Virus record (IMG/VR): IMGVR_UViG_3300025000_000063
Location: 1-64,000 of that record
Strand: one strand, 5' to 3'
DNA length: 64,000 nt
From: a virus
Lineage: Duplodnaviria > Heunggongvirae > Uroviricota > Caudoviricetes
Shown: positions 8,650 through 53,143 of the stretch, piece by piece
Numbering within the stretch: the stretch's first letter is position 1
Layout of the letters: the number at the start of each line of letters is the position of its first letter
Program-made: the position numbers and the translations under genes
Notes under the pieces: model-generated
What the model saw: the letters and a program-made list of their open reading frames with translations, nothing else
Databases searched by the model: none
What the model was told of the DNA's origin: nothing

Positions 8650-8707
8650 GTTTCTTGCACTTTAATCTTTTAAAAAAGACTTGTCAAGTATTTTTTTTTA
8701 TTTTTTT

Positions 8708-8953
8708 TTATTCATCATAAAAGGACGCACAGGTTTCGGTCCCTGGCTCCAATTCAGTGTGACCGGCGTCCTTCACAACAAATGCTCCTTTCTCAAATAC
8801 TATCTCTTTAAATTTCTTATCACTGACGGCCAGCACCACCACATTCATATAATACTCTTTGTGATTAATACCCGTAGCTGCGTGAACCGCTTGAGCGGCC
8901 AACTTACCAGGCGACATTTTCAAATTTTTCCGGTAAATTATTTTGAGTCTCAT
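8708..8953 (-). CDS. PTH2-family peptidyl-tRNA hydrolase-like protein (short, 81 aa)
   Basis: NLKMSPGKLAAQAVHAA matches the PTH2 signature (GKGK[IL]AAQ..HAA). The protein ends with DAGHTELEPGTET and appears to lack the last about 25 residues of canonical PTH2. Confidence 0.5.
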   Translation of the reverse strand: MRLKIIYRKNLKMSPGKLAAQAVHAATGINHKEYYMNVVVLAVSDKKFKEIVFEKGAFVVKDAGHTELEPGTETCASFYDE

Positions 8954-12617: not shown

Positions 12618-13130
12618 CTACCTCGTTTCAAAAAGGATTTTATAAGGAGAGGTCTTCTTTATTTTATCCTGCATCTCGGAAGTTTCAAACCTCTCCAAGC
12701 GTATGGTTTTTATTTCCGCGCCAGTTACATTTTCAAAGTCTGCTATCAGTTTAAGGATTTCATCTGCCAATACTTCTTTTAAATTTTTATCGTTCATTAT
12801 TTCCCCCCCCCCACAAAAATATTTCTTTATTTCACTTCTCGTTATAGCCGGTCGGGTCCATTCTCTTTGAAACCTTCTCCAGTTTTTGTCTTCATCCCCG
12901 GCAAAAGAATTAAAAGCCGGTCCGTCCATTTCTGCCGGAGCAATCTTTGACCACGCTTTATAAAGATATTCAGCCTTTTCGATGTCATAAGTGAATAAGG
13001 TGCTGATATGAACTCTTGTTATATCCTTTGGGGTGCTCTCGTTCGGAACATCGAAAAAACAGAGATGATCCTCCGGGGAAGCCGAAGTTTTTCTTGGGAA
13101 CACTCTTGCAAGGCCTATCTCTCCCAGCAT
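12618..13130 (-). CDS. hypothetical protein (170 aa) containing a C10 homopolymer tract at 12803-12812
   Basis: The ORF overlaps the primase stop. GGG codons are encoded by the poly-C run. The C-terminal 57 aa may be a separate product, because the run G10 AAATA ATG could act as an RBS. Confidence 0.35.
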   Translation of the reverse strand: MLGEIGLARVFPRKTSASPEDHLCFFDVPNESTPKDITRVHISTLFTYDIEKAEYLYKAWSKIAPAEMDGPAFNSFAGDEDKNWRRFQREWTRPAITRSEIKKYFCGGGEIMNDKNLKEVLADEILKLIADFENVTGAEIKTIRLERFETSEMQDKIKKTSPYKILFETR

Positions 13131-20251: not shown

Positions 20252-20422
20252 ATGGCTAAGATAGAAGTTCAGAAGACTAAGACTTACACTCTGCATTTAA
20301 ACGAGGCTGAGTTAGCTTTTCTGTGTGATTTATGCGAGAAATACTGGAAGACGTATCCAAGCAGCCTTAATGAGGCCGCAAAGAGTGTTGCGAGGGTTAT
20401 CAATGAGGGAATAAACGCTTGA
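20252..20422 (+). CDS. small hypothetical protein (56 aa)
   Basis: ATG 20252. Its stop TGA overlaps the TTG start of the SNF2 gene (TTGA). Confidence 0.4.
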   Translation: MAKIEVQKTKTYTLHLNEAELAFLCDLCEKYWKTYPSSLNEAAKSVARVINEGINA

Positions 20423-21981
20423 TCGCCTTCAACCAAAAACATAACCTTTTTATTTGGTCCGGTCGGTATGAAGACCGGCATAATCCCCAAAAAGCCGGGT
20501 TCACTTGGCATGAAGAGGGAAAAGCTTGGGTCACGCCGTCGGTCTATATTGCCTGCCAGCTTTATGGACAGTGCGACAATCTCGCAAAGCAAAGGCTTTC
20601 CAGGGTTGTCCGCAATATCAAAATGTCGGCTGTTCATGAAGAAGACCCTTTGTCGATTTTCCGGATTCCTCTTCCCCCAGGAAAAGCCCTCTACCCTTTT
20701 CAAGCTTCTGGGATAGAACACCTTGTGACTCAGTTACGGTCTGGCAGGAAGGCAGTAGCGTGTTTTGACGAGCAAGGTCTTGGTAAAACTGTTCAGGCAA
20801 TAGGGATTGCAAATGTTTTGGGTTTAAGTAAACTTGCGGTTGTTTGCCCTGCTCATCTTCGGTTGAATTGGGAAAAAGAAATAAACGGGTGGCATTTTTT
20901 CAATAAAGGCGTGAAGGTAATTTTAAAAGGGTCTGACAGTTTTGATTATGCTCAGTCCTGTGTTGTTTCTTACGAGCTTTGTCATAAGATAAAAGATTTC
21001 AATCCAGAGCTTCTTATATTGGATGAAATTCATTATGTCAAAACTCCTGGAACAAAGAGAACCACGGCCGTCCTCGGTAATGTTGAAAAAAATATCAAAG
21101 GTTTGGTCATGGATACCAGAACGATCTTTATAGACGGAACTCCTTTACCCAACGGCAAACCCAACGAACTTTGGCCGATCCTTTTTAAAACGGCGCCGGA
21201 TGCTATCTCATACATGAAACTCTGGCCCTTTATTCAAAAATTTTGTGAGATATGGGAAGATGGTGCTGAATATAAAGTCGTCGGCGCCAAGAACAAAAAA
21301 GAGTTATTCACCCGATTGCGTGGATCAGGTTTCATTCTGCGCCGACTGAAGAAAGATGTTCTAAAAGACCTTCCCCCCAAAGTTTTTAAGATGGTTGTTT
21401 TTCCGCAGGACAGTAAGACCAGGAAGATAATTGACAAGGAATCCGAGTTCAATGAAAAAGAAATCCTTCTTCACGGCGCTCCGGTTGGAACAGTTTTGCC
21501 TGAACTCAGAAGAGAAATGGGCTTGGCTAAAGTCGAAGACTCTTTGAAATATATAACCGATCTTCTTGATGGCGGGGTAAAAAAGGTCGTAGTTTTTGGC
21601 CACCACAGGGATGTGTGCTTTGGGTTGAAAGATGGTTTGAAAAAGTATAACCCGGTAATTTATATCGGTGGTTTGAGTGACAAGGCAAAAATGTTGGCTG
21701 AATCAGTCTTTCAAACGGATTCGAGATGTCGGGTATTTATCGGCAACGAAGCGGCGGAAGAAGGAATAACTTTGACGGCCGCCCAGAACTTAATCGATGT
21801 GGAGCCGGAATGGGTTCCCGGAAAAAGCGACCAAAGGTATGACCGTCTGCACAGAATAACCCAAACAGGCAGCGTGGTTATCCATATTTTAGTCGTTGAG
21901 GGTTCACTGGATGCAAAGATACTCGGCTCCGCTGCAAACAAGAAAAAAGATAGCAAGGAGGTGTTGGATGGACAGCATTAA
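20419..21981 (+). CDS. SNF2-family DEAD/DEAH-box helicase (TTG start)
   Basis: FDEQGLGKTVQAIG is motif I. LILDEIHYVK is a DEIH motif II. The helicase-C block reads QTDSRCRVFIGNEAAEEGITLTAAQNLIDVEPEWVPGKSDQRYDRLHRITQT. Confidence 0.7.
   Translation: MIAFNQKHNLFIWSGRYEDRHNPQKAGFTWHEEGKAWVTPSVYIACQLYGQCDNLAKQRLSRVVRNIKMSAVHEEDPLSIFRIPLPPGKALYPFQASGIEHLVTQLRSGRKAVACFDEQGLGKTVQAIGIANVLGLSKLAVVCPAHLRLNWEKEINGWHFFNKGVKVILKGSDSFDYAQSCVVSYELCHKIKDFNPELLILDEIHYVKTPGTKRTTAVLGNVEKNIKGLVMDTRTIFIDGTPLPNGKPNELWPILFKTAPDAISYMKLWPFIQKFCEIWEDGAEYKVVGAKNKKELFTRLRGSGFILRRLKKDVLKDLPPKVFKMVVFPQDSKTRKIIDKESEFNEKEILLHGAPVGTVLPELRREMGLAKVEDSLKYITDLLDGGVKKVVVFGHHRDVCFGLKDGLKKYNPVIYIGGLSDKAKMLAESVFQTDSRCRVFIGNEAAEEGITLTAAQNLIDVEPEWVPGKSDQRYDRLHRITQTGSVVIHILVVEGSLDAKILGSAANKKKDSKEVLDGQH
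21953..21972 (+). repeat. 20 bp direct repeat GCAAGGAGGTGTTGGATGGA (copy 1). It contains an RBS and a start codon.
   Basis: An identical copy lies at 22323-22342. Both flank the 21967-22351 gene. Confidence 0.6.
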
Positions 21982-22351
21982 AACTGGAAGCCGGTGGCGT
22001 CGCCCCGGGTACTCAAAAGACAAAGGGCCTTATAATGGGTACACTGTTTTGTTTGTAACGAATACTAAAAATTTGAGCGATTTTCACCCGCCCCAAGTCG
22101 TATACCGGGGCGACAATGGAGGAAATTGGAGTATGCCTCTTTCAGATTGGCCTGGAAAGCTTATCCCTGAAGAACGGGTTGGTGGCCATGTGCTTTATTC
22201 GAAAGAAGATTTTGAAGATGAAAACCCCCATAATATTGAAGCTGTGGCTGATTTAGTCTGTAATGGCGGGTTAGGTATTTGTATGTTTTGTCTGGCGGCT
22301 GAATCGGAACTTGATTACCCTTGCAAGGAGGTGTTGGATGGAAAAAGTTGA
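21967..22351 (+). CDS. hypothetical protein (128 aa) flanked by 20 bp direct repeats
   Basis: ATG 21967 lies within repeat copy 1. The C-terminus has VCNGGLGICMFC. Confidence 0.45.
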
Positions 22352-22369
22352 GAAGGGGGAGAATAAAAA

Positions 22370-23014
22370 ATGAGTAGCCTATATTGGGATGATTTTGAAA
22401 GACGTATATCTGAAACTGTTTCAGCCGTTAATTCAAAAACCAAACCCCCGGTCAGGCGTGTGGCTGTTTTTATAACGAACCGGTGTAATTTCAGGTGTCA
22501 TTACTGCAATGTAAACCAAAACGAAAAAACATTATCCGAAGAAGCTTTTAATGGCATCATTAATCGCTACGGGAGTGGCGCGATAATCCATATAACTGGT
22601 GGTGAGCCTTCCGTTGTTCCTTGGTTATACTCTTATATGGAAAACAGAAAGGATGTCCGGTTTCATTTAAATACTAACGCCTATTTAGCTCCTCCTAAAA
22701 ACATTAAAAGGTTAAAAGTTTCACTGGACACTCAGTATAAAGATTATTTTAATTTTTTAATTGGGGTTAATTTTAACGCTTTCGATTCGGTGGTGGAAAA
22801 TATAAGGCAAGCGTGTAAAAATACGGTTGTCAGTATAACCTATACTTTGACAAAAGAAAACCATAAGGATTCCGTTGAATTCGCCAAATGGGCGTTAAAA
22901 CAATTCCCCGGTCTATACGCTGTTTTTTTCAGTGTTTACAAAGGAGATAATAAGAGGTTTAAGTTTGATGATTTGTCAGTTAAAGTTTTTTTAATCAGGT
23001 GTTACCTAAGTTGA
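22370..23014 (+). CDS. radical SAM enzyme, N-terminal core (CxxxCxxC = CNFRCHYC; ITGGEP SAM-binding motif)
   Basis: VAVFITNRCNFRCHYC and IIHITGGEPSVVP are present. The frame ends just after the slippery run TTTTTTA at 22987-22993. Confidence 0.65.
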   Translation: MSSLYWDDFERRISETVSAVNSKTKPPVRRVAVFITNRCNFRCHYCNVNQNEKTLSEEAFNGIINRYGSGAIIHITGGEPSVVPWLYSYMENRKDVRFHLNTNAYLAPPKNIKRLKVSLDTQYKDYFNFLIGVNFNAFDSVVENIRQACKNTVVSITYTLTKENHKDSVEFAKWALKQFPGLYAVFFSVYKGDNKRFKFDDLSVKVFLIRCYLS

Positions 23015-23310
23015 AAAAGAGCCTGAACCCTGAGAGCTTGGAACTTATTAATGAAACAATAGATGAAAAGCTTAGGCTTATACAGGGGGTTAGATTCCCT
23101 GAGAATAAAAGAGAAAACTCGTGCTATATCTCTATGTCTGAAAGAGTAATTTCACCCTCTGGAGAAATCTTCAGGTGTTCTCATTTATACCGGGATAAAA
23201 TTAACCATAAAGACAGCGAAAAACATGAAAAATGTTTGTATGGGTGCAACAGAAGATTAATAAGTTTTAATGAGGAAGTTGAAAGGAGGATAAAACGTGT
23301 ATATTTATGA
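22984..23310 (+). CDS. C-terminal Cys-rich (SPASM/twitch-like) continuation of the radical SAM gene, in the -1 frame
   Basis: The frame is open from 22984, and the table ORF 22999-23310 starts at GTG. Five Cys lie in CYISMSERVISPSGEIFRCSHL...KCLYGCNRR. The combined length of about 315 aa is typical for a radical SAM protein. Confidence 0.45.
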   Translation, partial: SFFNQVLPKLKKSLNPESLELINETIDEKLRLIQGVRFPENKRENSCYISMSERVISPSGEIFRCSHLYRDKINHKDSEKHEKCLYGCNRRLISFNEEVERRIKRVYL

Positions 23311-23361
23311 CAAGCAAAAGAACGAGATAGCTGGAAAAACAGCTTTTAAGGAAGGCTTATA

Positions 23362-23841
23362 ATGCCAGAACAACAGATATGGTACGTCTGTGAAGAATGC
23401 GGCTGCCGGGTCCCTCAGTCGGGCATGACGAAAATTAAATCCGGTCCTGATTTCGTCTTCAGGTGCGCGAAGCACTTGACCAAAGTTGATCACCGGGAAG
23501 CGACATGCCTGTGGCCTGGATGTACTGAGATTTTCAGTCAGTCAAGGAGCGGTTATATTTCAAAGTTCTGCCCCAAGCACAGAAAAACGAACGCTGTGAA
23601 AGTAGCCCAGGAATATCGGGAAAACCACTCTGAGACTTTTGGGATTAGAATTAAAAAGCGGTCTATGAAGCTTTATGACCCGTCGAAGATACATTGCGCT
23701 AACCGGTTGGAATGCTGTGGCAAGTACGACGGCTACGCATGTTTACCCTGTAAAAACTGCCGGGATTATCGGCTTGAGCACGGTAATGTTGACCCGATGG
23801 CTATGAGGCGGGATGGGGAAGCATCAAGGTTGTGTTTATAA
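23362..23841 (+). CDS. Cys-rich zinc-finger protein (159 aa)
   Basis: Several CxxC pairs. AAGGAAGGCTTATAATG RBS. Confidence 0.5.
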   Translation: MPEQQIWYVCEECGCRVPQSGMTKIKSGPDFVFRCAKHLTKVDHREATCLWPGCTEIFSQSRSGYISKFCPKHRKTNAVKVAQEYRENHSETFGIRIKKRSMKLYDPSKIHCANRLECCGKYDGYACLPCKNCRDYRLEHGNVDPMAMRRDGEASRLCL

Positions 23842-23854
23842 ATAAGGAGGAAAC

Positions 23855-24049
23855 ATGAAAATTTATTGTTGGCTTGTAGGATTGGCTATTATTATTGGGT
23901 TATTGATCGGCGTGGTTTTGCCAGGCTTGATCTCGTCAAATAGCTCGGAATTGTTTTTGATTGGGGTGGTTTTGATAATCGTATCAATCCCGCTCGTTTA
24001 TTTCATAGGAAAGAAAATATATAAGGAGATTCAAAATGCAAAGATTTAA
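23855..24049 (+). CDS. small two-TM membrane protein (possible NfeD-like partner of the SPFH protein)
   Basis: Hydrophobic, 64 aa. Its stop overlaps the SPFH start. Confidence 0.4.
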   Translation: MKIYCWLVGLAIIIGLLIGVVLPGLISSNSSELFLIGVVLIIVSIPLVYFIGKKIYKEIQNAKI

Positions 24050-24884
24050 ATGGTTTTTTGTTTTGCTGGTGCTTTTGTCAACGGTTGCCTGTTCAAAGGT
24101 TCCTGCTGGTCATGTCGGGGTAAAAGTGTACCTTCTTGGTGGTTCAAAGGGTGTTGAGTCTGAGCAGTTGGGCGTGGGGCGGTATTGGATTGGATGGAAT
24201 GAAGAACTGTATCTGTTCCCTGCGTTTACTCAGAATTACGTATGGACCAAAGATAAAAACGAAGGCAGCCCCAACGACGAGTCAATATCATTTCAAACAG
24301 TTGAAGGCATGAGCGTCAACGCCGATGTCGGGATTTCATACTCAGTTAAACCAGAAAAGGTTGCAGAAGTATTTCAGAAGTACAGAAAGCAGATGGGTGA
24401 AATAACAGATATTTATCTCAGGAACATGGTGAGAGACGCTTTCGTGTCAATAGCGTCCACAATGCCGGTTGAAAACGTGTATGGCGCTGGCAAGGCAGAA
24501 CTTTTAAAATCTGTTGAGGATTATGTTAAAAGCCAGTGCGAGGATATGTTCAATATAGAGCGTATTTATTTAGTCGGTGATCTTAGGTTGCCACAGCAGG
24601 TTACGGCGGCTCTAAATGCTAAAATACAGGCTACTCAGCAGGCCCAGCAGGTGGAAAATGAGATTCGGGCGGCAAAAGCCCAGGCCGAAAAGAAAATAGC
24701 CGAGGCAAAAGGTGAAGCTGATTCATTGCTTCTTGTTGCTGAATCACAGGCCAAAGCCAATAAAATTCTTGCGGCATCTTTGACCCCTGAATTTGTCCAG
24801 TACCAGGCGTTGAAGCAATGGGACGGCAAATTGCCAGGAATAATGATACCGGGCGGTGCCGTTCCGTTCGTGTCGGTGAAATAA
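24036..24884 (+). CDS. SPFH/band-7 (prohibitin/HflK-like) domain lipoprotein
   Basis: Signal peptide with lipobox LSTVAC. VPAGHVGVKV is the SPFH start motif. An Ala/Gln-rich coiled-coil C-terminus follows. Confidence 0.65.
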   Translation: MQRFKWFFVLLVLLSTVACSKVPAGHVGVKVYLLGGSKGVESEQLGVGRYWIGWNEELYLFPAFTQNYVWTKDKNEGSPNDESISFQTVEGMSVNADVGISYSVKPEKVAEVFQKYRKQMGEITDIYLRNMVRDAFVSIASTMPVENVYGAGKAELLKSVEDYVKSQCEDMFNIERIYLVGDLRLPQQVTAALNAKIQATQQAQQVENEIRAAKAQAEKKIAEAKGEADSLLLVAESQAKANKILAASLTPEFVQYQALKQWDGKLPGIMIPGGAVPFVSVK

Positions 24885-24922
24885 TAAGCGCGTTTTTAAC
24901 AAAAAAAAAAAGGAGAAGTAAA

Positions 24923-25660
24923 ATGCTTGAAAGTTTGTTTGAAAGATTGGTTGTGGCTGTAGAGGGTTTGCTCATTGAATCGAGAAAAAGAACTGAAATC
25001 GCAGGAAATTGGGTACAGGTTGAGTTGCAGGAAACCCAGACCTCGGTAAAAGAGATGCCGGATTTTAAAAAGCTTAGTCCGGGGTCTCTTGAAGAAGAGC
25101 CCATTGGAGTGACTTCTTTCAAAACATATGAACAGCTTCTTGAAGAACACGGCCTCCCGTACCTCAAAGGGTTGTGTGAAAAACGTGAAATTAACTTCCC
25201 AAAGCTGGCTCGGTCCAACACTATTATCGCTTTGCTGAAGGATAGCGACAAAGAAGCTGGTCTACCGGGTTCCTGTTTGCCTGAAACCAAGGAGGCTGCC
25301 ACACCCGGCCCGGAAACATCCACCCCGGCCGACCCTTTCGCCGTGGAAGCGCCCGTTGTCGAAGACCCGTTCGCCACTACTCCCGCACCTGAAACCGATC
25401 CTTTGGCGGGTTCTGAACCGGAATCCAAAAAAGAAGTAACCGAAGATGAAGTGAGATCCCGGATGTACGAGCTTAAAAAGGTTTATGATGCCAAGTTCGA
25501 AGGTCAAGGCATCGGCATGATTGTGGCTTTTCTGGAAAAACAAACCGGCGTCAGGGGGTTCAACACTTGGGCGGATAACATCCCTAAAGAAAACAGGAAG
25601 AAAGAGTTCTCCGCTATGCTTAAGATAGTTAATTCTGAAATATCCGGGATGTCCAAATAA
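24923..25660 (+). CDS. hypothetical protein with a Pro/Thr/Glu-rich low-complexity linker
   Basis: GGAGAAGTAAAATG RBS. The longer table ORF starts further upstream inside the poly-A region. Confidence 0.45.
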   Translation: MLESLFERLVVAVEGLLIESRKRTEIAGNWVQVELQETQTSVKEMPDFKKLSPGSLEEEPIGVTSFKTYEQLLEEHGLPYLKGLCEKREINFPKLARSNTIIALLKDSDKEAGLPGSCLPETKEAATPGPETSTPADPFAVEAPVVEDPFATTPAPETDPLAGSEPESKKEVTEDEVRSRMYELKKVYDAKFEGQGIGMIVAFLEKQTGVRGFNTWADNIPKENRKKEFSAMLKIVNSEISGMSK

Positions 25661-26898
25661 TGAGTGAACATTCTGAAATCAGCCCCAGCGGGCTTCACCG
25701 AGTTTTGAATTGTCCAGGCAGCGTTCGTCAATGCCGGGGGTTGGAGAGTAAGTCTTCGATGTACTCTATGGATGGGTCAATTGTCCATGACTTGAATAAA
25801 CTCTGTTTACTTCGGGGTCAAGATGCTGAAGACTACCTTGGGTACTGGGGTTGGTATAATAAAAACAATGCAACCGGGGTGCAAGAATTAAAGCCGACTG
25901 ACAAAGGCCTGCTCCGGGTTATCCAGATAACAGAAAAGGAGGTACAAAGTAGTCAGATATACCTTGATGTGATTCGGGCTTCCCGGGCAAAACACCCCAG
26001 CGCCGAATACAAAGTTGAAGAGAAGATGGATATGGGTTGGATATCCCCTGGAATGAAAGGGACCGGGGACCACATTATCCGGGAATTTTTTGGAATTTTG
26101 ATCGTCGATGACTATAAAAACGGGTTCAATGAAGTGGAAATTGAAATGAATCCCCAGTTTCTTACTTACGCTCTCGGCGCCCTCGGTCCCAACAACGATC
26201 AAGCCATTGAAGATGTTATGATCCGGGTTATCCAGCCCAATGGGATGCACCATAAAGGACTAGTGCGAAGTCAAGTTCTATCAGTAAAGAGAGTTTATAA
26301 GTGGAAAGACGAGGTTCTTCTTCCTGGCATCGCCAGGGCTCAGGACCCAAATGCGCCTTTAATACCCGGAAGTTGGTGTTTCTTTTGTGAAGCTTCCAGG
26401 CAGCATAAATGCCCAAAGCAAACAGAATTAGCCGTTGATACTATGTTTGGTACTCCGATTGATCTGACAAAGGATTTTCTGCCAGAGCCGCCCGACCCCA
26501 AGACGTTGAGCCGAGTCCGGATGGATAAGGTACTGAAAGTGGCTGACATGATGGAAAGCTGGCTCAAAGCTGCAAAGGAGGAAGCATACAGAAGATTGGA
26601 AGTAGGAGACCCGGACGCGCCGGTTAATTTCAAACTGGTGGACGGCCCGTTAAGCGACAGGAAATGGGCGGATGAACAAAAAGTCGTCGAAGCGTTTAAA
26701 CCTTTAGGTGTGGAAGTCTATCAGTCACCAAAAATTAAATCCCCGGCTCAATTGGAAAAAGATTTGGTTAAAAAATATAAACCTAAAGAAAGAGAGGAGA
26801 AAATCAAACCGCTGTTGGCAGAAAGAAAACGAGGCAAGCCGGTCATGGTTCCGATAACAGATGAACGGCCGTCAATAGTTGATAAAATGTTTGGATAG
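25660..26898 (+). CDS. DUF2800-family PD-(D/E)xK nuclease (Cas4-like Cys cluster)
   Basis: The N-terminal pattern SPSGLHRVLNCPGS matches the DUF2800 hallmark (LS.SS..RWL.CP.S). The C-terminal CFFCEASRQHKCPK is a Cys cluster. It lies upstream of the DUF2815 gene and the PolA gene. Confidence 0.55.
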   Translation: MSEHSEISPSGLHRVLNCPGSVRQCRGLESKSSMYSMDGSIVHDLNKLCLLRGQDAEDYLGYWGWYNKNNATGVQELKPTDKGLLRVIQITEKEVQSSQIYLDVIRASRAKHPSAEYKVEEKMDMGWISPGMKGTGDHIIREFFGILIVDDYKNGFNEVEIEMNPQFLTYALGALGPNNDQAIEDVMIRVIQPNGMHHKGLVRSQVLSVKRVYKWKDEVLLPGIARAQDPNAPLIPGSWCFFCEASRQHKCPKQTELAVDTMFGTPIDLTKDFLPEPPDPKTLSRVRMDKVLKVADMMESWLKAAKEEAYRRLEVGDPDAPVNFKLVDGPLSDRKWADEQKVVEAFKPLGVEVYQSPKIKSPAQLEKDLVKKYKPKEREEKIKPLLAERKRGKPVMVPITDERPSIVDKMFG

Positions 26899-40724: not shown

Positions 40725-40821
40725 TCGTAATTCCTTTTTATCTTATTATACAATACTACTATTCAAAATTTAAAAGTCCCGCATTTAGCCTTTCTACTCA
40801 GGGGGGGGCTCCTTTTTATAA

Positions 40822-46800: not shown

Positions 46801-47718
46801 TTAAATAAACCCCTCAAATGTTATGGAACATTCACTAACTGCCGGACCCGGAACCACTATGGAAAAATCCGTGAAAAACCCGTAACCGTTCATAGACGTT
46901 ATCCCGTAATCAACATCATCCCCGATAAAAGCAACCCCTACCGCATCCATTTCCGACAATATAGAATCCACCTCATCAACAAATTCATTTTCGATAATGA
47001 TATCCAGTTCAACTTCTCTGGCGCTTGGTCGTTTAGTAAACTCAACCCTACCGTACTCATCTCGATCAGTTTTGGAAAAAGATAAGCGCCCTATTTTTGG
47101 CCCCCACACAGTTTTCCCCAAAGACATCAACTTTCCTACCACAACCGCGCCAGCTTTGACGGTCTCACCGGAATAAGAAATTGTGATAGTCGTAACCGCA
47201 TCCGGGTATGGCGGCAAATCAAGATCCACAATTGTTTTGATGTATCGAACCGGTTTAAAATAGTAATCGTAATAATCATCAACTTCCATGTCAATCGCAG
47301 AATGTACTTTACGATAAACCTCACCCTCAACGGGATCAGTCATAACGATAGTCACCGTTTCGGCCTCAATATTAAAAATAGCACAGGCGTCTATTATCTC
47401 TCCGGGCGTAATTTCCACCACGATTTCATCTGTTGTAACCGTCTGAGAGTTAACAAACTCGTCAGACAGCATTTTCCACGGGTTAGTAGCTCCTAAATAA
47501 ATCCATTTCGGGGTGGCAGATACCCGATCATCCGTTGTATTTGGATCATTCCCGATATTACTCCCAGCCACACTTTCCCATTCTTCGTGCTGAGCAGCGA
47601 TCATCACGGTATCCCCCGCGGCATATGTTGTACCCACCGCCCATTCCGGATTATCTGTTTCCGGGACATCCGTAGTTGTGTTTACATCTGTTAAAAGGAC
47701 AGGGATAATGGCTTTCAT
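46801..47718 (-). CDS. distal tail protein (Dit-like), immediately downstream of the tape measure
   Basis: Position after the tape measure protein (TMP). Size 305 aa. Confidence 0.45.
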   Translation of the reverse strand: MKAIIPVLLTDVNTTTDVPETDNPEWAVGTTYAAGDTVMIAAQHEEWESVAGSNIGNDPNTTDDRVSATPKWIYLGATNPWKMLSDEFVNSQTVTTDEIVVEITPGEIIDACAIFNIEAETVTIVMTDPVEGEVYRKVHSAIDMEVDDYYDYYFKPVRYIKTIVDLDLPPYPDAVTTITISYSGETVKAGAVVVGKLMSLGKTVWGPKIGRLSFSKTDRDEYGRVEFTKRPSAREVELDIIIENEFVDEVDSILSEMDAVGVAFIGDDVDYGITSMNGYGFFTDFSIVVPGPAVSECSITFEGFI

Positions 47719-50700
47719 GCAATCACCCTCACTTTCATAGCGTCAACATCGTTAAACCGCTTCAGCAATTTTGTAGTTTCCAAAGTATTTTTAACCGTTT
47801 GATAATTCAAAGTCTCCAGACGCTCTGTCTGTTTTTCAATAGCTTTGACAACGGCATCATTGTCAGGAAGTTTTTTGTTTGGGATAATCCATTCATCCCC
47901 GTGGAAAGTGGCATCCGGCATTTTATACCCAGAATCAGGTCCAGAGATAAACCCCCCGTCCCGGAACTGCCTGCCCTCGTTCAATCCGTACATCAGGTAA
48001 TGTTCCAGCCCACTGGCAAATTGCCCGGATTGTACTGCCTGGGCTACGTCTAAATTGTTGGCAAGGTATGTGTCCTCTTTCGTCAAAGAGGCGTATCCAG
48101 TGGCTCCACGGCCTTCATATTTGCCATACAAGTCATAGTGTTCTTGGCCGCTGGTAAACTGCCCGGCAGCCACAGCCGCGGCTACGTCAGGATTCGCAGC
48201 CAGATAAGCAGCTTCCGGGTCTGCCGTTGTTTGTGCTGTAATCAATGCGGCTTGGGCAGCAAAGAAGGCTTGCATTAACTGCTCGATGGTTTGGGAGCTG
48301 TCCAACAAACTTTTCAAAGTCGCAATTTCTTCCTGCATCCAGGAATTATCCAGTTCCATTTGTGCTGATTCGTATGCAGCACGGGCAGCGGCAATATCCG
48401 TCACGTTGGAAGAAACCCCATTGACTTCGTCCATCAAGCCTTCCAAGTATTCGGTCTGTTTTTCAGCTTCAGATAATTGATCAACGGCGGAGTCCTCAAC
48501 CCCAGTCAACAAAACGGAAGTCTTTGCCAAGTCACGGGCATAATCAATCCAAGAAACTGAAGTGGACTTGGCAGTGTCCAGATACTTTTCCGAAACCGAC
48601 AATAGGCTGTCTATGGATTCTGTATCCCCTGACATGGCTGAACTTGCCAGAGACGACATTTGAGATGCATAAATGCTTTTACCGGTAACGCCGATTGTCC
48701 CGGCAGTTGACCACATTTCAGACTTGAAATCTTGCAAACTTTTGATGGCCGGAGTAAGCGCCGACACGATATCTTGCTGTGCGCTCAGTTCATCGTCTAA
48801 AAGACTCAGATAATTTTCTTTGGCCGTGGCCGCCTTATCCTCCAGGATGGATAATTCGCTTTCAAGGGCAGATAAATATTCCTGGCCGGCGGAATTCCTG
48901 GAAGAAGTAAGAGAATCAATATCTATCCCGGCATTATCAAAAAAGTCATCCCATTTTTCGGACAAAGCGTCCACTTCCGAAATAATGCTGGATATATCAA
49001 GTTGGTCTATGATGTAAGGCAAATAATCAAACATCTTTTCAACATCACCGCCCACGGCATCAAAAACTTCCCCCAGCTTAATATTAAAAGGAGTGATATA
49101 TTTTTCAATGACTTCGTTTGTCAACGAAACAGCCAAAGAGGAGGATACTGACTGTTTCATGATATCAGAAATCAAGCTCCCGGTATCTCCGCCCATTATT
49201 GCCTGTTGCAAGGCCGAGCTTACGTTTGTGGCAGTTAGCCCACTGACCTGCATACCCAAGGCCGTGGTGCGATTTTTCTCAGCTTCCGTGACCTCTTCCA
49301 GCGTAGCCAAAGAATCATTAAGGGCGTCAATCCACGTCTCAAACTGATCAATGATTTGAACCAGGGGATCTGTAATTTTTATCAATGGGTCCATCATGGC
49401 ATCCATTTCCGTAAAAACACCCATGATCGATTCCAAATTCAAAAAAGCCTGCAAAGAATCATCCCCCAAAGCTGCCATCTGCCCGGAAAACTTTTCAAGG
49501 AAATCAGTAGTCCCTTCAACAACCGTATTAAAATCTATAAACGCCTGAAAAAGGTCCTCATCATCCCCTTTTATAGATTCAAAAAAATCAACCCCGAAAG
49601 ATTCGAACCCGGCACCCATCGTTACCGTTTTTAAACCGTCTAAAATACCTTCAAAAACATTGTTGCTAACCGCTTCCAGGATTGCGTCGGTATCCATGCC
49701 TTCAGTGTACACCCAACCCCTATTTTTGGCCCCTGCATCGTATTTTTCCAGGGTTTCGGCGAATGCCCCGGAAAGTGCTTCATCTACCGCAGCAAACCGA
49801 GTATCAAAAAACTCCAAAAGGGTGGCAGAAGATTCACCCCCCATGTCCTGAGCAAAGAGTTTGTAATTGTATTTGGTTGAGTTCAGGCTCCCTGTCGATG
49901 GAGATTCTTCCTCCCAAGACCCACCTTGTATTCCTATTGCCGGGGTCGGATCATCTTCAAAGAGAGAAGTAATCAACGGGATAGCTATGGCTGCAATAGC
50001 CGCATAAGGAGCGATGGCAGAAAGCGTAGAAGCTATACCCGCTGTTCCGGCAGCTTCAGCTCCGGCCGCGACCATATATTCAGCTCCACCATAATAAGCA
50101 GCACTCGTACCCGCCATTGAAGCGCCTGTCCCGTACCAATTGGAATTACCGAATATGCTGGAGCCTACTTTTCCCCCAAGGCCAGTTGTTAGAAATTGGG
50201 AAGTTCCTCCGTTGAAAGCATTATATATGGAATTGGCCCCTGAAGCCGTACTGAGAATATTAGAACTGGCCCCGGACATGTTTGAAAAGGATGTCCCATT
50301 CCAAGTTGCGCCCAAAGCGGAACCAATTTGTAAACCAATAGGAATAACGAATTTCTGAGCAATTATTGAAGCGGCGATCTCATAAAGCATGTCCTTGAAG
50401 ATGCTGACAATCTTATCAGCCATATTTTCATGGGATTCAATAATATCCTTAATATTATCTTTTATGGTGTCAGAAAAATCAGTGTAAGCTTCAAGAGATT
50501 TTTCCTGAGATTTTTTATACTCCTTGGCCCATCTCTCCCGGAACTTTGCAAGATCTTCTTCAGCCTTCTTACGATCTTCAACGGCTTTCAATTCTTTCTC
50601 TGCCAGGTAAGCAATCTGAGCCTCCTGGGTTAAGAAGGAATCGTCCCAGGCCATACCAAGTGCCATATTGGAATATCTGTTTTTGAAGCCCTCTTCTTGG

Positions 50701-52151
50701 TCAGCGAGCAGCTTCATTAATCGGGCAGTTTCTTCTATACCTTCATTTGTTGCTCCGATTACTTTTACTTTTTCTTTACGCCAATTATCTACTTCCAGAT
50801 ATTTTAATTGCTTTTCTGCGTCAGCATAACCTCCGGTGCTTATTTGTAATTGTGCTAACAATTTTGCGACAGACTCATTTGCACTTATTTGTTTTTTGGT
50901 CAGAGCGATACTTTCTTTGACTGCCGAGGCAACAACCCCAGATATTGTGCCAGCATATTCCGAATACCCATCGGTACTCTCGGAAATAGTTTTATTCACC
51001 CCGTTTAAACTAATATCAAAATCCAGAACACGCTGCCGCATTTGGTTCGTGCTGGAAGTTAAAAATTCGGCTAAAGACATTTGCCCACCAGCAACCATGC
51101 CAGCAGCTTTAGAATTAACCATAACACTATCTAACGCAGTGTTCACCAAGGACAATGCTGCTGCCGCAACTTGCCCAGCAGCAGCCACTCCACGCAACGT
51201 TACCGCAATAGATTGGATTAATTCTGGTAAATGCTGTTTAATTAATTCAGAATTATTATCAACCCAATTCGCAAATTCTTGAGAAACTCGCTGTAACTCT
51301 GCTTGAATTTCCGGCTGAACAATTGCTGTATTCAAATCCTTCATTAAATTGGTTACTGCTTTTACGGCATCGGCGGTTGCTGGATTAAATGCCTCTCCCA
51401 TTTCGATCTTAAAATCATTGATATACCTGGGTAAAGAAGTGATTTGTTTTCCAGCGGTTTCCATCGCAGCTTCATACGTGCCAATTTTTTTAACACCTTC
51501 TTCCATAACCGCATTGGTACGCGCTTGCATTTTCTCTTGTTCAGTTAATGCATTTGAGGTTTTACCAAGTTCCTTCGCCAATTTAGCGTAAGAAGCTTCA
51601 AAAGAAACATTGATACCAATAGACCTCAATACGTCAGTTTGAGCTGTCTGGATACCATGAATCATCCTTTCAAGTGCTTCCGATGAATTTATATTTCCAA
51701 TAATAGCCGCATCCTGCGCAATACGAGCAAGCTGCTGCGATTTCGACAAGTCGATTTGGGCTTGTGCCATACGGATTGTAACCTGTCTGGCAATATCCAT
51801 CTGGATACCAGCGTCTTTTACTCCAGCAGCGTATTTATTCATTTCCTGGGAGGAGTACCCCATATTTTTACCAACCTGGGTTAATACCACTCCAAGGGTC
51901 TCGTACCTGGCGCCAGCCATTGCAACATCTTGTAGAAATGTCTTTAACTGCAAGCCGGCAAAAGCAGTACCAATCAACCCTACTGATTTTACAATAAAGG
52001 CAGATGAACTCCCCCAACCCCTATTCACTTTAGACAAGGCATCATCTGTCTTCCTGGAGTACTTTTCCAGTTCAGAATTTGCCTGAGCCACAGCGGATTT
52101 CAGGTCTGTTATGTCTGCACCGATTGTTGCAAGTAAGCTGCCGATATCCAT
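47715..52151 (-). CDS. tail tape measure protein (1478 aa)
   Basis: Very long Ala/Gln/Glu-rich coiled-coil protein downstream of the G/GT chaperones. This is typical of tape measure proteins. Confidence 0.85.
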   Translation of the reverse strand: MDIGSLLATIGADITDLKSAVAQANSELEKYSRKTDDALSKVNRGWGSSSAFIVKSVGLIGTAFAGLQLKTFLQDVAMAGARYETLGVVLTQVGKNMGYSSQEMNKYAAGVKDAGIQMDIARQVTIRMAQAQIDLSKSQQLARIAQDAAIIGNINSSEALERMIHGIQTAQTDVLRSIGINVSFEASYAKLAKELGKTSNALTEQEKMQARTNAVMEEGVKKIGTYEAAMETAGKQITSLPRYINDFKIEMGEAFNPATADAVKAVTNLMKDLNTAIVQPEIQAELQRVSQEFANWVDNNSELIKQHLPELIQSIAVTLRGVAAAGQVAAAALSLVNTALDSVMVNSKAAGMVAGGQMSLAEFLTSSTNQMRQRVLDFDISLNGVNKTISESTDGYSEYAGTISGVVASAVKESIALTKKQISANESVAKLLAQLQISTGGYADAEKQLKYLEVDNWRKEKVKVIGATNEGIEETARLMKLLADQEEGFKNRYSNMALGMAWDDSFLTQEAQIAYLAEKELKAVEDRKKAEEDLAKFRERWAKEYKKSQEKSLEAYTDFSDTIKDNIKDIIESHENMADKIVSIFKDMLYEIAASIIAQKFVIPIGLQIGSALGATWNGTSFSNMSGASSNILSTASGANSIYNAFNGGTSQFLTTGLGGKVGSSIFGNSNWYGTGASMAGTSAAYYGGAEYMVAAGAEAAGTAGIASTLSAIAPYAAIAAIAIPLITSLFEDDPTPAIGIQGGSWEEESPSTGSLNSTKYNYKLFAQDMGGESSATLLEFFDTRFAAVDEALSGAFAETLEKYDAGAKNRGWVYTEGMDTDAILEAVSNNVFEGILDGLKTVTMGAGFESFGVDFFESIKGDDEDLFQAFIDFNTVVEGTTDFLEKFSGQMAALGDDSLQAFLNLESIMGVFTEMDAMMDPLIKITDPLVQIIDQFETWIDALNDSLATLEEVTEAEKNRTTALGMQVSGLTATNVSSALQQAIMGGDTGSLISDIMKQSVSSSLAVSLTNEVIEKYITPFNIKLGEVFDAVGGDVEKMFDYLPYIIDQLDISSIISEVDALSEKWDDFFDNAGIDIDSLTSSRNSAGQEYLSALESELSILEDKAATAKENYLSLLDDELSAQQDIVSALTPAIKSLQDFKSEMWSTAGTIGVTGKSIYASQMSSLASSAMSGDTESIDSLLSVSEKYLDTAKSTSVSWIDYARDLAKTSVLLTGVEDSAVDQLSEAEKQTEYLEGLMDEVNGVSSNVTDIAAARAAYESAQMELDNSWMQEEIATLKSLLDSSQTIEQLMQAFFAAQAALITAQTTADPEAAYLAANPDVAAAVAAGQFTSGQEHYDLYGKYEGRGATGYASLTKEDTYLANNLDVAQAVQSGQFASGLEHYLMYGLNEGRQFRDGGFISGPDSGYKMPDATFHGDEWIIPNKKLPDNDAVVKAIEKQTERLETLNYQTVKNTLETTKLLKRFNDVDAMKVRVIA

Positions 52152-52160
52152 TATTTGTCC

Positions 52161-52643
52161 TTATTTACCTGTATCCCCATTTGTTTTAAGCCGTCTGGGT
52201 TTTCTTACTGACGCTGCTGGTTGAACTTGGGAAAGCCGTTTGGGGGGCTTTGTCCTTGTTGCAAACTCTTCCAAGGCATAATTGTACCATTTTCCGTCAG
52301 TGCCTTGAACTTTTTTAACTTCAACTTCATCTTTCTTTGCCCAAGCCTTTGCTTTTTCATCCCCTGATTTCAACAAAATGTTTTTAAAAGAGGATAACAA
52401 ACCTGAAGCAACTTCTTTCTTTGCTGCTTTACTGGAAGTTGTCTTGGCTTTCTTTTTCCAGGGCATGAAATCCTCAATACTGAATTCAGCCCCATCTTTT
52501 CTTTTAACTGTTGCGGATGCAAATAATTGGGCAACATATGCGATCTGAAGCAGAATAACATCCTCAAAAGACGGATTGTCTTTCGCAAATATTTCCCATT
52601 CGAGTGCTTGTTTTGCTGTCATGCTGCCCATAAATGCATCCAT
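52161..52643 (-). CDS. tail assembly chaperone gpT-like frame, expressed as a gpG-T fusion by a -1 frameshift
   Basis: The frame is open for 22 codons upstream of its ATG and overlaps the gpG 3' end. A slippery heptamer, A AAA AAC, lies at 52703-52710 on the minus strand. Confidence 0.6.
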   Translation of the reverse strand: MDAFMGSMTAKQALEWEIFAKDNPSFEDVILLQIAYVAQLFASATVKRKDGAEFSIEDFMPWKKKAKTTSSKAAKKEVASGLLSSFKNILLKSGDEKAKAWAKKDEVEVKKVQGTDGKWYNYALEEFATRTKPPKRLSQVQPAASVRKPRRLKTNGDTGK

Positions 52644-52672
52644 ATTATATTGTCCCGCCCTACGTGCTTCTG

Positions 52673-53143
52673 TTAACCAGAAACGACGCTCTGGGCGTTT
52701 AAGTTTTTTTCAATGGCGTCCTCGTCTTCTTTTGTTACGCCAGAAGCCGCTCTCAGTGCCTCCTGAAGCCGGTTGATGACTGCGGCTGACTTATCCCCTA
52801 AAGCGTCGATATCCGATTCTTTGAAGATAAGAACCTTTCCTTCCGGGTCTGCGCAAAGCATTTTAACCAGTAAAGAAGCGGAAAGGTTTTTCACAGTCAC
52901 TTTACCAGGGGTTCCGTCTGCTGATTCCTGTGCATCTTTATTCAAGAAAAAATAGGACGCTTGCCAGTCGTCACGTTCTTTTGCGGTCATTGAACGCACA
53001 TACACAGTAACCCCGCCCCATTCCGGAACAACCTGGGGGATCACAGGCAAATCATTCGCCTGTAAAATGATGTTTCTGAGTTCTTCTGCTGTTAGAAAGG
53101 TTGCTGCTGTAGGAGCCTGATTGGTTCCGTTGATTTCAGTCAT
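52673..53143 (-). CDS. tail assembly chaperone gpG-like
   Basis: Located between the major tail protein and the tape measure. It ends 20 codons past the canonical slippery site. Confidence 0.6.
   Translation of the reverse strand: MTEINGTNQAPTAATFLTAEELRNIILQANDLPVIPQVVPEWGGVTVYVRSMTAKERDDWQASYFFLNKDAQESADGTPGKVTVKNLSASLLVKMLCADPEGKVLIFKESDIDALGDKSAAVINRLQEALRAASGVTKEDEDAIEKNLNAQSVVSG

Follow-up and report, generated by a model that had tools for sequence, protein, structure and literature searches.

The radical S-adenosylmethionine (SAM) gene considered here lies on a 64,000-nt stretch of DNA from a Caudoviricetes phage (IMG/VR record IMGVR_UViG_3300025000_000063, positions 1 to 64,000), referred to below as the window, and is broken at a run of T residues into two overlapping reading frames. 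The break has been attributed in an initial annotation either to programmed −1 ribosomal frameshifting or to a homopolymer sequencing or assembly error. Neither mechanism is the best supported, and a third explanation, a one-base deletion, fits best. We consider it likely that the gene is a horizontally acquired, dispensable accessory gene that has suffered a genuine, probably recent deletion of a single T.

Two reading frames of one radical SAM gene

The 0-frame open reading frame (ORF1; 22370-23014, +) encodes a protein of 214 aa that carries the radical SAM core with strands β1-β6, as seen from its translation, its Pfam match (PF04055) and the AlphaFold2 model of the repaired protein. The −1 frame is open over 22984-23310 (+), with 108 codons followed by a TGA stop codon (23308-23310), and corresponds to the rest of helix α6 and a C-terminal Cys-rich, putatively twitch-like domain. 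The break itself was placed by the sequence and a gapless family alignment in a T7 homopolymer (22986-22992, +). The junction at 22985-22995 reads G TTTTTTT AAT with the 0-frame codons GTT TTT TTA, and the heptamer T_TTT_TTA (22987-22993, +) is in the X_XXY_YYZ register. ORF1 ends with seven out-of-frame residues (LIRCYLS), and its stop codon TGA (23012-23014) is the 7th codon past TTA. The upstream limit of the −1 frame is a TAA at 22981-22983, so that this frame is open from one codon 5′ of the heptamer. The ORF coordinates, the T-run, the register of the heptamer, the distance to the stop codon and the opening of the −1 frame at 22984 had all been described in the initial annotation, and each was confirmed in the sequence.

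Restoring one base in the T-run gives a colinear full-length protein of 313 aa (containing SVKVFFNQVLPKL; junction KVFFNQVLP), for which 360 homologues were found in the protein search; the orthologues are uninterrupted. The family statistics given here rest on the 119 full-length homologues listed, of the 360 found. These are single ORFs of 305-359 aa with 53-64% identity to the repaired protein and a query coverage of 96-99%, and their alignment to it has no indel at the junction. This is in agreement with the IMG/VR loci, at which the N and C parts are in one frame without a junction gap in 22 of 22 cases. The −1 frame also matched the C-terminal third of the family in tblastn with E values of 1e-28 to 1e-36, and it keeps 37 of the 37 columns that are at least 90% conserved. 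Judged from these family matches and conserved columns, the −1 frame is real coding sequence rather than a chance ORF, and the gapless alignment confirmed that the ORF at 22370-23014 and the −1 frame at 22984-23310 encode the predicted halves of a single radical SAM enzyme of about 313 aa. The earlier estimate of roughly 315 aa and the placement of the break inside the T-run are thus borne out by sequence and alignment, and the downstream Cys-rich frame proved to be conserved in relatives, always within a single ORF.

The break falls on a conserved Phe-Phe pair. Of the 119 listed homologues, 111 have Phe at position 207 and 114 at position 208, where none has Leu. An in-frame T7 is present at the same Phe-Phe in one intact relative (L016).

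The interrupted form is not confined to one assembly. The exact 214-aa product (P0001) was found on 19 contigs from the ENA, JGI and Logan assemblies, and the exact 99-aa product of ORF2, the start of which gene callers place at TTG 23011, on 14 + 5 contigs from the same collections. Three loci were fetched and their DNA is identical to that of the window across the gene. The window also equals contig Ga0209319_1000150 (JGI metagenome 3300025010) base for base over one locus (L002), with identical coordinates in record and window. The samples are groundwater of the Rifle aquifer, sequenced on an Illumina HiSeq 2000 with 150-bp paired reads (PMC4742961). A collection of 15 billion proteins contains none of the exact products expected from T8, T6 and T9 runs or from a tandem slip. 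Scans of a metagenome and a viral contig collection for the junction with T6 to T9, and for its flank alone, gave no match, although the pattern does match the window; this phage is missing from both collections, which are hence uninformative on the T count. Elsewhere in the window, ORFs contain other runs of T7, A7 or greater length without a break in frame. From the assembled contigs, the lesion is present in the DNA and a sequencing error is unlikely.

A probable deletion from T8 to T7

Considering that the break lies on the family-conserved Phe-Phe, T8 is the simplest ancestral state, and we infer from the sequence that the direction of the mutation was deletion from T8. An ancestral GTT TTT TTT AAT (V-F-F-N) would have lost one T, most simply by replication slippage; A/T runs are hypermutable through this process (PMC1088944). 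The change from T8 to T7 would leave GTT TTT TTA AT, and with it a perfect in-frame T_TTT_TTA.

The initial annotation had emphasized that the gene is split exactly at a canonical slippery heptamer. The heptamer is indeed present and in register, but it is not rare, since eight of the 180 in-frame X_XXY_YYZ heptamers in the ORFs of the window are T_TTT_TTA and lie in ordinary ORFs, and it arises automatically upon a deletion from T8 to T7, so that it carries no independent weight. The case carries a general warning: whenever an N8 run coding for a repeated amino acid loses one base, a perfect in-frame X_XXY_YYZ heptamer is left behind, so that a canonical slippery site where a gene breaks is no evidence for recoding.

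The AlphaFold2 model of the repaired protein (predicted local distance difference test score 89, predicted TM-score 0.87) consists of six β/α units, then helix 201-218 (α6), then the C-terminal domain. Residue 207, where the frame breaks, is in the model part of the core-barrel helix 201-218 and not of a linker. Standard decoding would give a 214-aa product cut in the middle of helix α6 and lacking the whole putative auxiliary-cluster (twitch-like) domain, and because of this cut in a core helix and the loss of the domain the product is, on the model, most likely inactive. Full-length enzyme would arise only by unprogrammed low-level slippage, in traces at most. Addition of a single U by RNA polymerase would bring back the ancestral VFFN exactly, and a ribosomal −1 slip would give VFLN or VFFN. 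By extrapolation from E. coli data, such slippage would be expected to be of the order of 1% or less. The deletion would be an event of an already known kind, a homopolymer frameshift of the textbook type in a phage gene that is not essential, and in itself of little biological weight.

Several observations weigh against a simple inactivating deletion. The C-terminal half shows no decay in its conserved columns, and the ratio of C-part to N-part identity is 1.056 (rank 99 of 120), so that the C part is no more diverged than the N part. This undecayed half fits a very recent lesion, one that is neutral or has hitch-hiked in a dispensable gene, and continued (leaky or split) expression equally well. 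T7 is present on every recorded contig, which indicates that the lesion is not strongly deleterious and might even be advantageous. Because the contigs are all clonal, their evolution gives no indication of whether the sequence has been under constraint since the split. In addition, a TTG overlapping the stop codon, with AGGTG 9 nt upstream, could by its sequence allow separate translation of the C piece. The residual doubt about the deletion comes mainly from the missing decay downstream of the lesion.

An accessory gene absent from the closest relatives

The closest relative phages were found via the SNF2 helicase encoded two genes upstream, with SNF2 proteins 92%, 86%, and 82% identical to that of the window. 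The radical SAM gene is absent from the four syntenic relatives (L032, L033, L034, and L035; SNF2 82-92% identical), and no radical SAM remnant was found in either L032 or L033. L032 is syntenic with the window, the 159-aa gene product being 82%, DUF2800 92%, and SSB 96% identical. In blastn, the window aligned to L032 over 20414-21971 and 23359-23845 with no alignment between. The missing segment is an accessory cassette (21972-23358, +) consisting of a 127-aa ORF and the split radical SAM gene, both of which are replaced in L032 by a single 84-aa ORF between the SNF2 gene and the 159-aa gene. L033 has other genes in the slot, including ThyX. In other phages, no gene next to a radical SAM homologue is shared with the window or among these phages, near-identical contigs apart. 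Broken or decayed copies also occur elsewhere in the family. Because the closest syntenic phages lack the gene and family members elsewhere share no neighbours, the gene appears to be dispensable, and a horizontally acquired, dispensable accessory gene is the best explanation of these comparisons of sequence and gene order. A related-locus search in IMG/VR queried with the SNF2 and DUF2800 proteins gave no relatives, and blastn of 20400-25700 against deposited phages gave only a weak match to the Band_7 gene.

Downstream of the SNF2 helicase gene, and before that for the DUF2800/PD-(D/E)XK nuclease, this phage group has a variable accessory slot (21972-24884 in the window, 6970-8383 in L032, and 7550-9807 in L033). 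It holds the 127-aa ORF, the radical SAM gene, and a Band_7/SPFH protein in the window phage, and the 84-aa ORF and a Phage_VG64 protein in L032. The 159-aa Cys-rich protein (23362-23841), common to the window and L032, has no Pfam match. One of the relatives, L035 (ENA ERZ909591, run SRR1658472; SNF2 86% identical), comes from the same sequencing run as the window phage, which means that at least two members of this group coexist in the Rifle aquifer samples.

Alternative explanations for the break

It might be proposed that the T-tract is functional, either because RNA polymerase slippage (U7 to U8) gives a small, regulated amount of full-length protein or because the tract is a reversible T7/T8 on-off switch. 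Such an explanation would account for several features of the locus: one inserted U restores the exact FFN of the family, the C-terminal half is intact, and the lesion is fixed in all contigs. There are also precedents, namely the G-run indels of the herpes simplex virus thymidine kinase gene with low-level compensatory frameshifting and the slippage rescue in endosymbionts (PMC5009743). The thymidine kinase case, a gene with "savior" indels, resembles the present one in the one-base indel in a mononucleotide run and the possible traces of full-length protein, but the radical SAM tract is a T7 in a phage accessory gene, with no sign that the lesion is advantageous or that full-length protein is produced. 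A similar comparison can be made with known transcriptional slippage sites. Those of Thermus thermophilus dnaX and Shigella mxiE are A9 and T9, and selection against runs sets in at about 9 A/T (PMC1088944). The site resembles that of mxiE in that one non-templated U in the T-run would fuse two overlapping ORFs. However, we took functional transcriptional slippage to involve a conserved A/T run of about 9 or more that fuses two ORFs, and the run here, unlike those of dnaX and mxiE, has a length of 7 and is conserved in no relative. No T8 or T6 variant is recorded, and there is no sign of switching. Some low-level transcriptional slippage at the T7 is plausible, and nothing suggests that it is used. 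If the tract were functional, the uncultivated groundwater phage would keep a potentially costly accessory radical SAM enzyme at a trace level or toggle it by a "savior indel" or contingency switch, and a deliberate T7 would explain both the preserved downstream half and the fixation in all samples. We consider this explanation unlikely, and a recent deletion from T8 remains our preferred reading.

Programmed −1 ribosomal frameshifting at U_UUU_UUA would yield a fixed ratio of the truncated 214-aa to the full-length 313-aa protein, and we regard it as distinctly unlikely. The geometry of the site is in its favour, with the heptamer in register, the −1 ORF opening one codon upstream and the 0-frame stop codon 7 codons downstream, as is the fully intact C-terminal frame. 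The same phage also appears to use −1 frameshifting at its tail-chaperone site. The heptamer is the same as that of HIV-1 gag-pol, and its X_XXY_YYZ geometry is formally the same as that of the A_AAA_AAG of bacterial dnaX and the IS3 family. However, the signals of HIV-1, dnaX, and the IS3 family have conserved stimulators (a stem-loop or pseudoknot, and in dnaX and IS911 an upstream Shine-Dalgarno [SD] sequence) and are conserved in relatives, whereas the radical SAM site is without these. The split arrangement was found in none of the 119 listed homologues and none of the 22 IMG/VR loci, all of which have single ORFs, and the closest phages lack the gene altogether.

With regard to stimulators, we looked for a stable hairpin or pseudoknot at a distance of 5-9 nt on the 3′ side and for an SD-like sequence some 10-14 nt away on the 5′ side, either of which would have counted, and found neither. 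The fold of the 107 nt downstream was no better than that of shuffled sequences (z = −0.48), so that the stem-loop or pseudoknot that the initial annotation had suggested predicting did not materialize. The best hairpin starting 3-9 nt past the heptamer reached −7.3 kcal/mol over 45 nt (z = −0.7). On the upstream side, the SD-like sequence closest to the site, AAGAGG, is 30 nt away, compared with the stimulatory distance of 10-14 nt, and there is no Rfam element at the site.

The heptamer itself is of a eukaryotic type that is weak on bacterial ribosomes (PMC4066793). Efficient motifs in E. coli need cognate re-pairing in the A site (H_HHU_UUY and V_VVA_AAR), the U_UUA tetramer gives only 1.8-3.6 times the background even with the IS3 pseudoknot, and unstimulated E. 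coli motifs do not exceed roughly 10 times a background of 0.055% (PMC4066793). These efficiencies are those of E. coli and may not be those of the phage's host. The codon TTA accounts for 23% of Leu codons, so that no hungry-codon pause is to be expected. A tandem slip would, moreover, place Leu at position 208, where 114 of the 119 listed homologues have Phe and none has Leu. With no split relative, no stimulatory structure, and a motif that is weak in bacteria, programmed frameshifting is not supported at this site.

Two further possibilities for decoding were considered. The window has no tRNA genes, which rules out a suppressor or shifty tRNA encoded by the phage. Translation with an alternative genetic code was also rejected: if the TGA is taken as a sense codon, the 0 frame merely runs on out of register to a TAG, and the protein is not restored.

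The tail-chaperone site serves as an internal contrast. An ORF matching Phage_TAC_1 (52673-53143, −) contains an in-frame A_AAA_AAC heptamer (52709-52703, −), and from there the −1 frame is stop-free into the ORF at 52161-52643. A predicted stem-loop (about 52697-52656, −) begins 5 nt downstream of the heptamer, with a ΔG of −23.8 kcal/mol and a z of −4.6. The chaperone ORFs are directly upstream of the tape measure gene (1478 aa, 47715-52151). By its sequence and position, the region 52161-53143 (−) has the features of a canonical G/GT-type tail assembly chaperone −1 frameshift. The two sites are alike in having an in-frame homopolymeric heptamer and a −1 frame that extends the product. They differ in that the G/GT site is in its canonical place and has a strong stem-loop, whereas no such structure accompanies the radical SAM site, which is also not conserved.

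It is also conceivable that the two pieces are made separately and assemble non-covalently as a split enzyme, with the C piece translated by termination-reinitiation at TTG 23011. The sequence at 23011-23014 (+) is TTGA, in which the 0-frame stop codon TGA (23012-23014) overlaps the possible TTG restart codon (23011-23013), and an SD-like AGGTG (22997-23001) lies 9 nt upstream of this TTG. The prediction of the 99-aa ORF by gene callers and the intact C-terminal domain are consistent with such a split. However, the AGGTG belongs to an ancestral Q/E-V coding sequence; as it stems from the Q-V codons, and the intact homologues L006 and L009 have a similar GAGGT at the corresponding position, it is no specific adaptation. 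In addition, the cut in the AlphaFold2 model lies in a helix of the core barrel rather than a linker, and no other family member has two genes at this point. We find a split enzyme very unlikely.

Finally, although the break sits in a homopolymer and one added T gives a perfect ORF, we regard a sequencing or assembly artefact in a genome that is truly T8 with one continuous ORF as very unlikely. Illumina data of this kind do not produce indels in the consensus of 7-8-mers, and the T7 recurs unchanged on 19 contigs that come from several samples and three assembly collections. In addition, the exact T8 product is missing from the protein collection, and other runs of this length or longer in ORFs of the window leave their frames intact.

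The radical SAM family

ORF1 carries the motif CNFRCHYC at residues 39-46 (C39-x3-C43-x2-C46) and ITGGEP at residues 75-80 (G77-G78-E79). Its Pfam Radical_SAM (PF04055) score of 45.6 bits, against a cut-off of 29.5, places it in the superfamily. The C-terminal part has four invariant Cys residues (C252, C270, C289, and C293), arranged as C252-x12-G265-x4-C270 followed by C289-x3-C293. The half-motif C-x12-G-x4-C is common to SPASM and twitch domains. Using CX9-15GX4C as the signature of both, with the addition of CX2CX5CX3C for a full SPASM domain, the tail is twitch-like rather than a full SPASM domain as far as the motifs indicate. The earlier description of a Cys-rich SPASM/twitch-like tail holds in that the tail is Cys-rich and apparently of the auxiliary-cluster, twitch-like type, but the tail has no match to Pfam SPASM (PF13186).

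The repaired protein shares with SPASM/twitch-type enzymes (BlsE, SkfB, DesII, MoaA, and anSME) the CX3CX2C motif, the partial TIM-barrel core, and a C-terminal Cys-rich domain with C-x12-G-x4-C. It differs from them in being at most 18-22% identical and in having only four conserved C-terminal Cys residues. Sequence matches in the PDB were confined to the core, with an E value of 1e-10 for MoaA. None of the curated NCBIfam models came near its cut-off: the viperin/prokaryotic viperin model NF038283 reached 30.7 bits against a cut-off of 180 and only over residues 31-120, and the MoaA models TIGR02666 and TIGR02668 reached 44-45 bits against cut-offs of 284-325. The PHROGs assignment was just "radical SAM domain-containing protein". 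It has been proposed that the enzyme is viperin-like or a DNA hypermodification isomerase; these functions found no support and remain guesses. Across 23 loci, near-identical contigs apart, the radical SAM gene has no conserved neighbours, and a pathway-based functional assignment is therefore not possible.

No homologue of the fused protein was found by tblastn in 50,697 deposited phage genomes, and a literature search found nothing on phage radical SAM families. From the sequences recovered, the family (more than 360 sequences) appears to comprise stand-alone, twitch-like, uncharacterised radical SAM proteins from metagenomic phages only. This sizeable family is possibly worth more attention than the split itself.

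Other damaged family members and homopolymers of the window

A two-gene organisation at this point is not seen in any other member of the family, the short matches being a different frameshift, remnants, and contig-end fragments. The different frameshift is in L030 (metagenome-assembled genome NCBI GCA_043956695.1; 2480-2520), in which 1 nt is deleted at a non-slippery AAGGG|ATA near residue 181. L028 (560-980) and L029 (P0128, on 7 contigs) are 5′-truncated, decayed 3′ remnants in which the invariant C252 is changed to Y, and P0130 is a contig-end fragment.

The window has further homopolymers of unusual length. A C10 (12803-12812) lies inside the ORF at 12618-13130 (−), and a G8 is found at 40801-40808. 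An A11 (24901-24911) is in the gap before the gene that starts at 24923, and a T9-A-T9 at 8691-8709 lies in a stretch that is largely non-coding.

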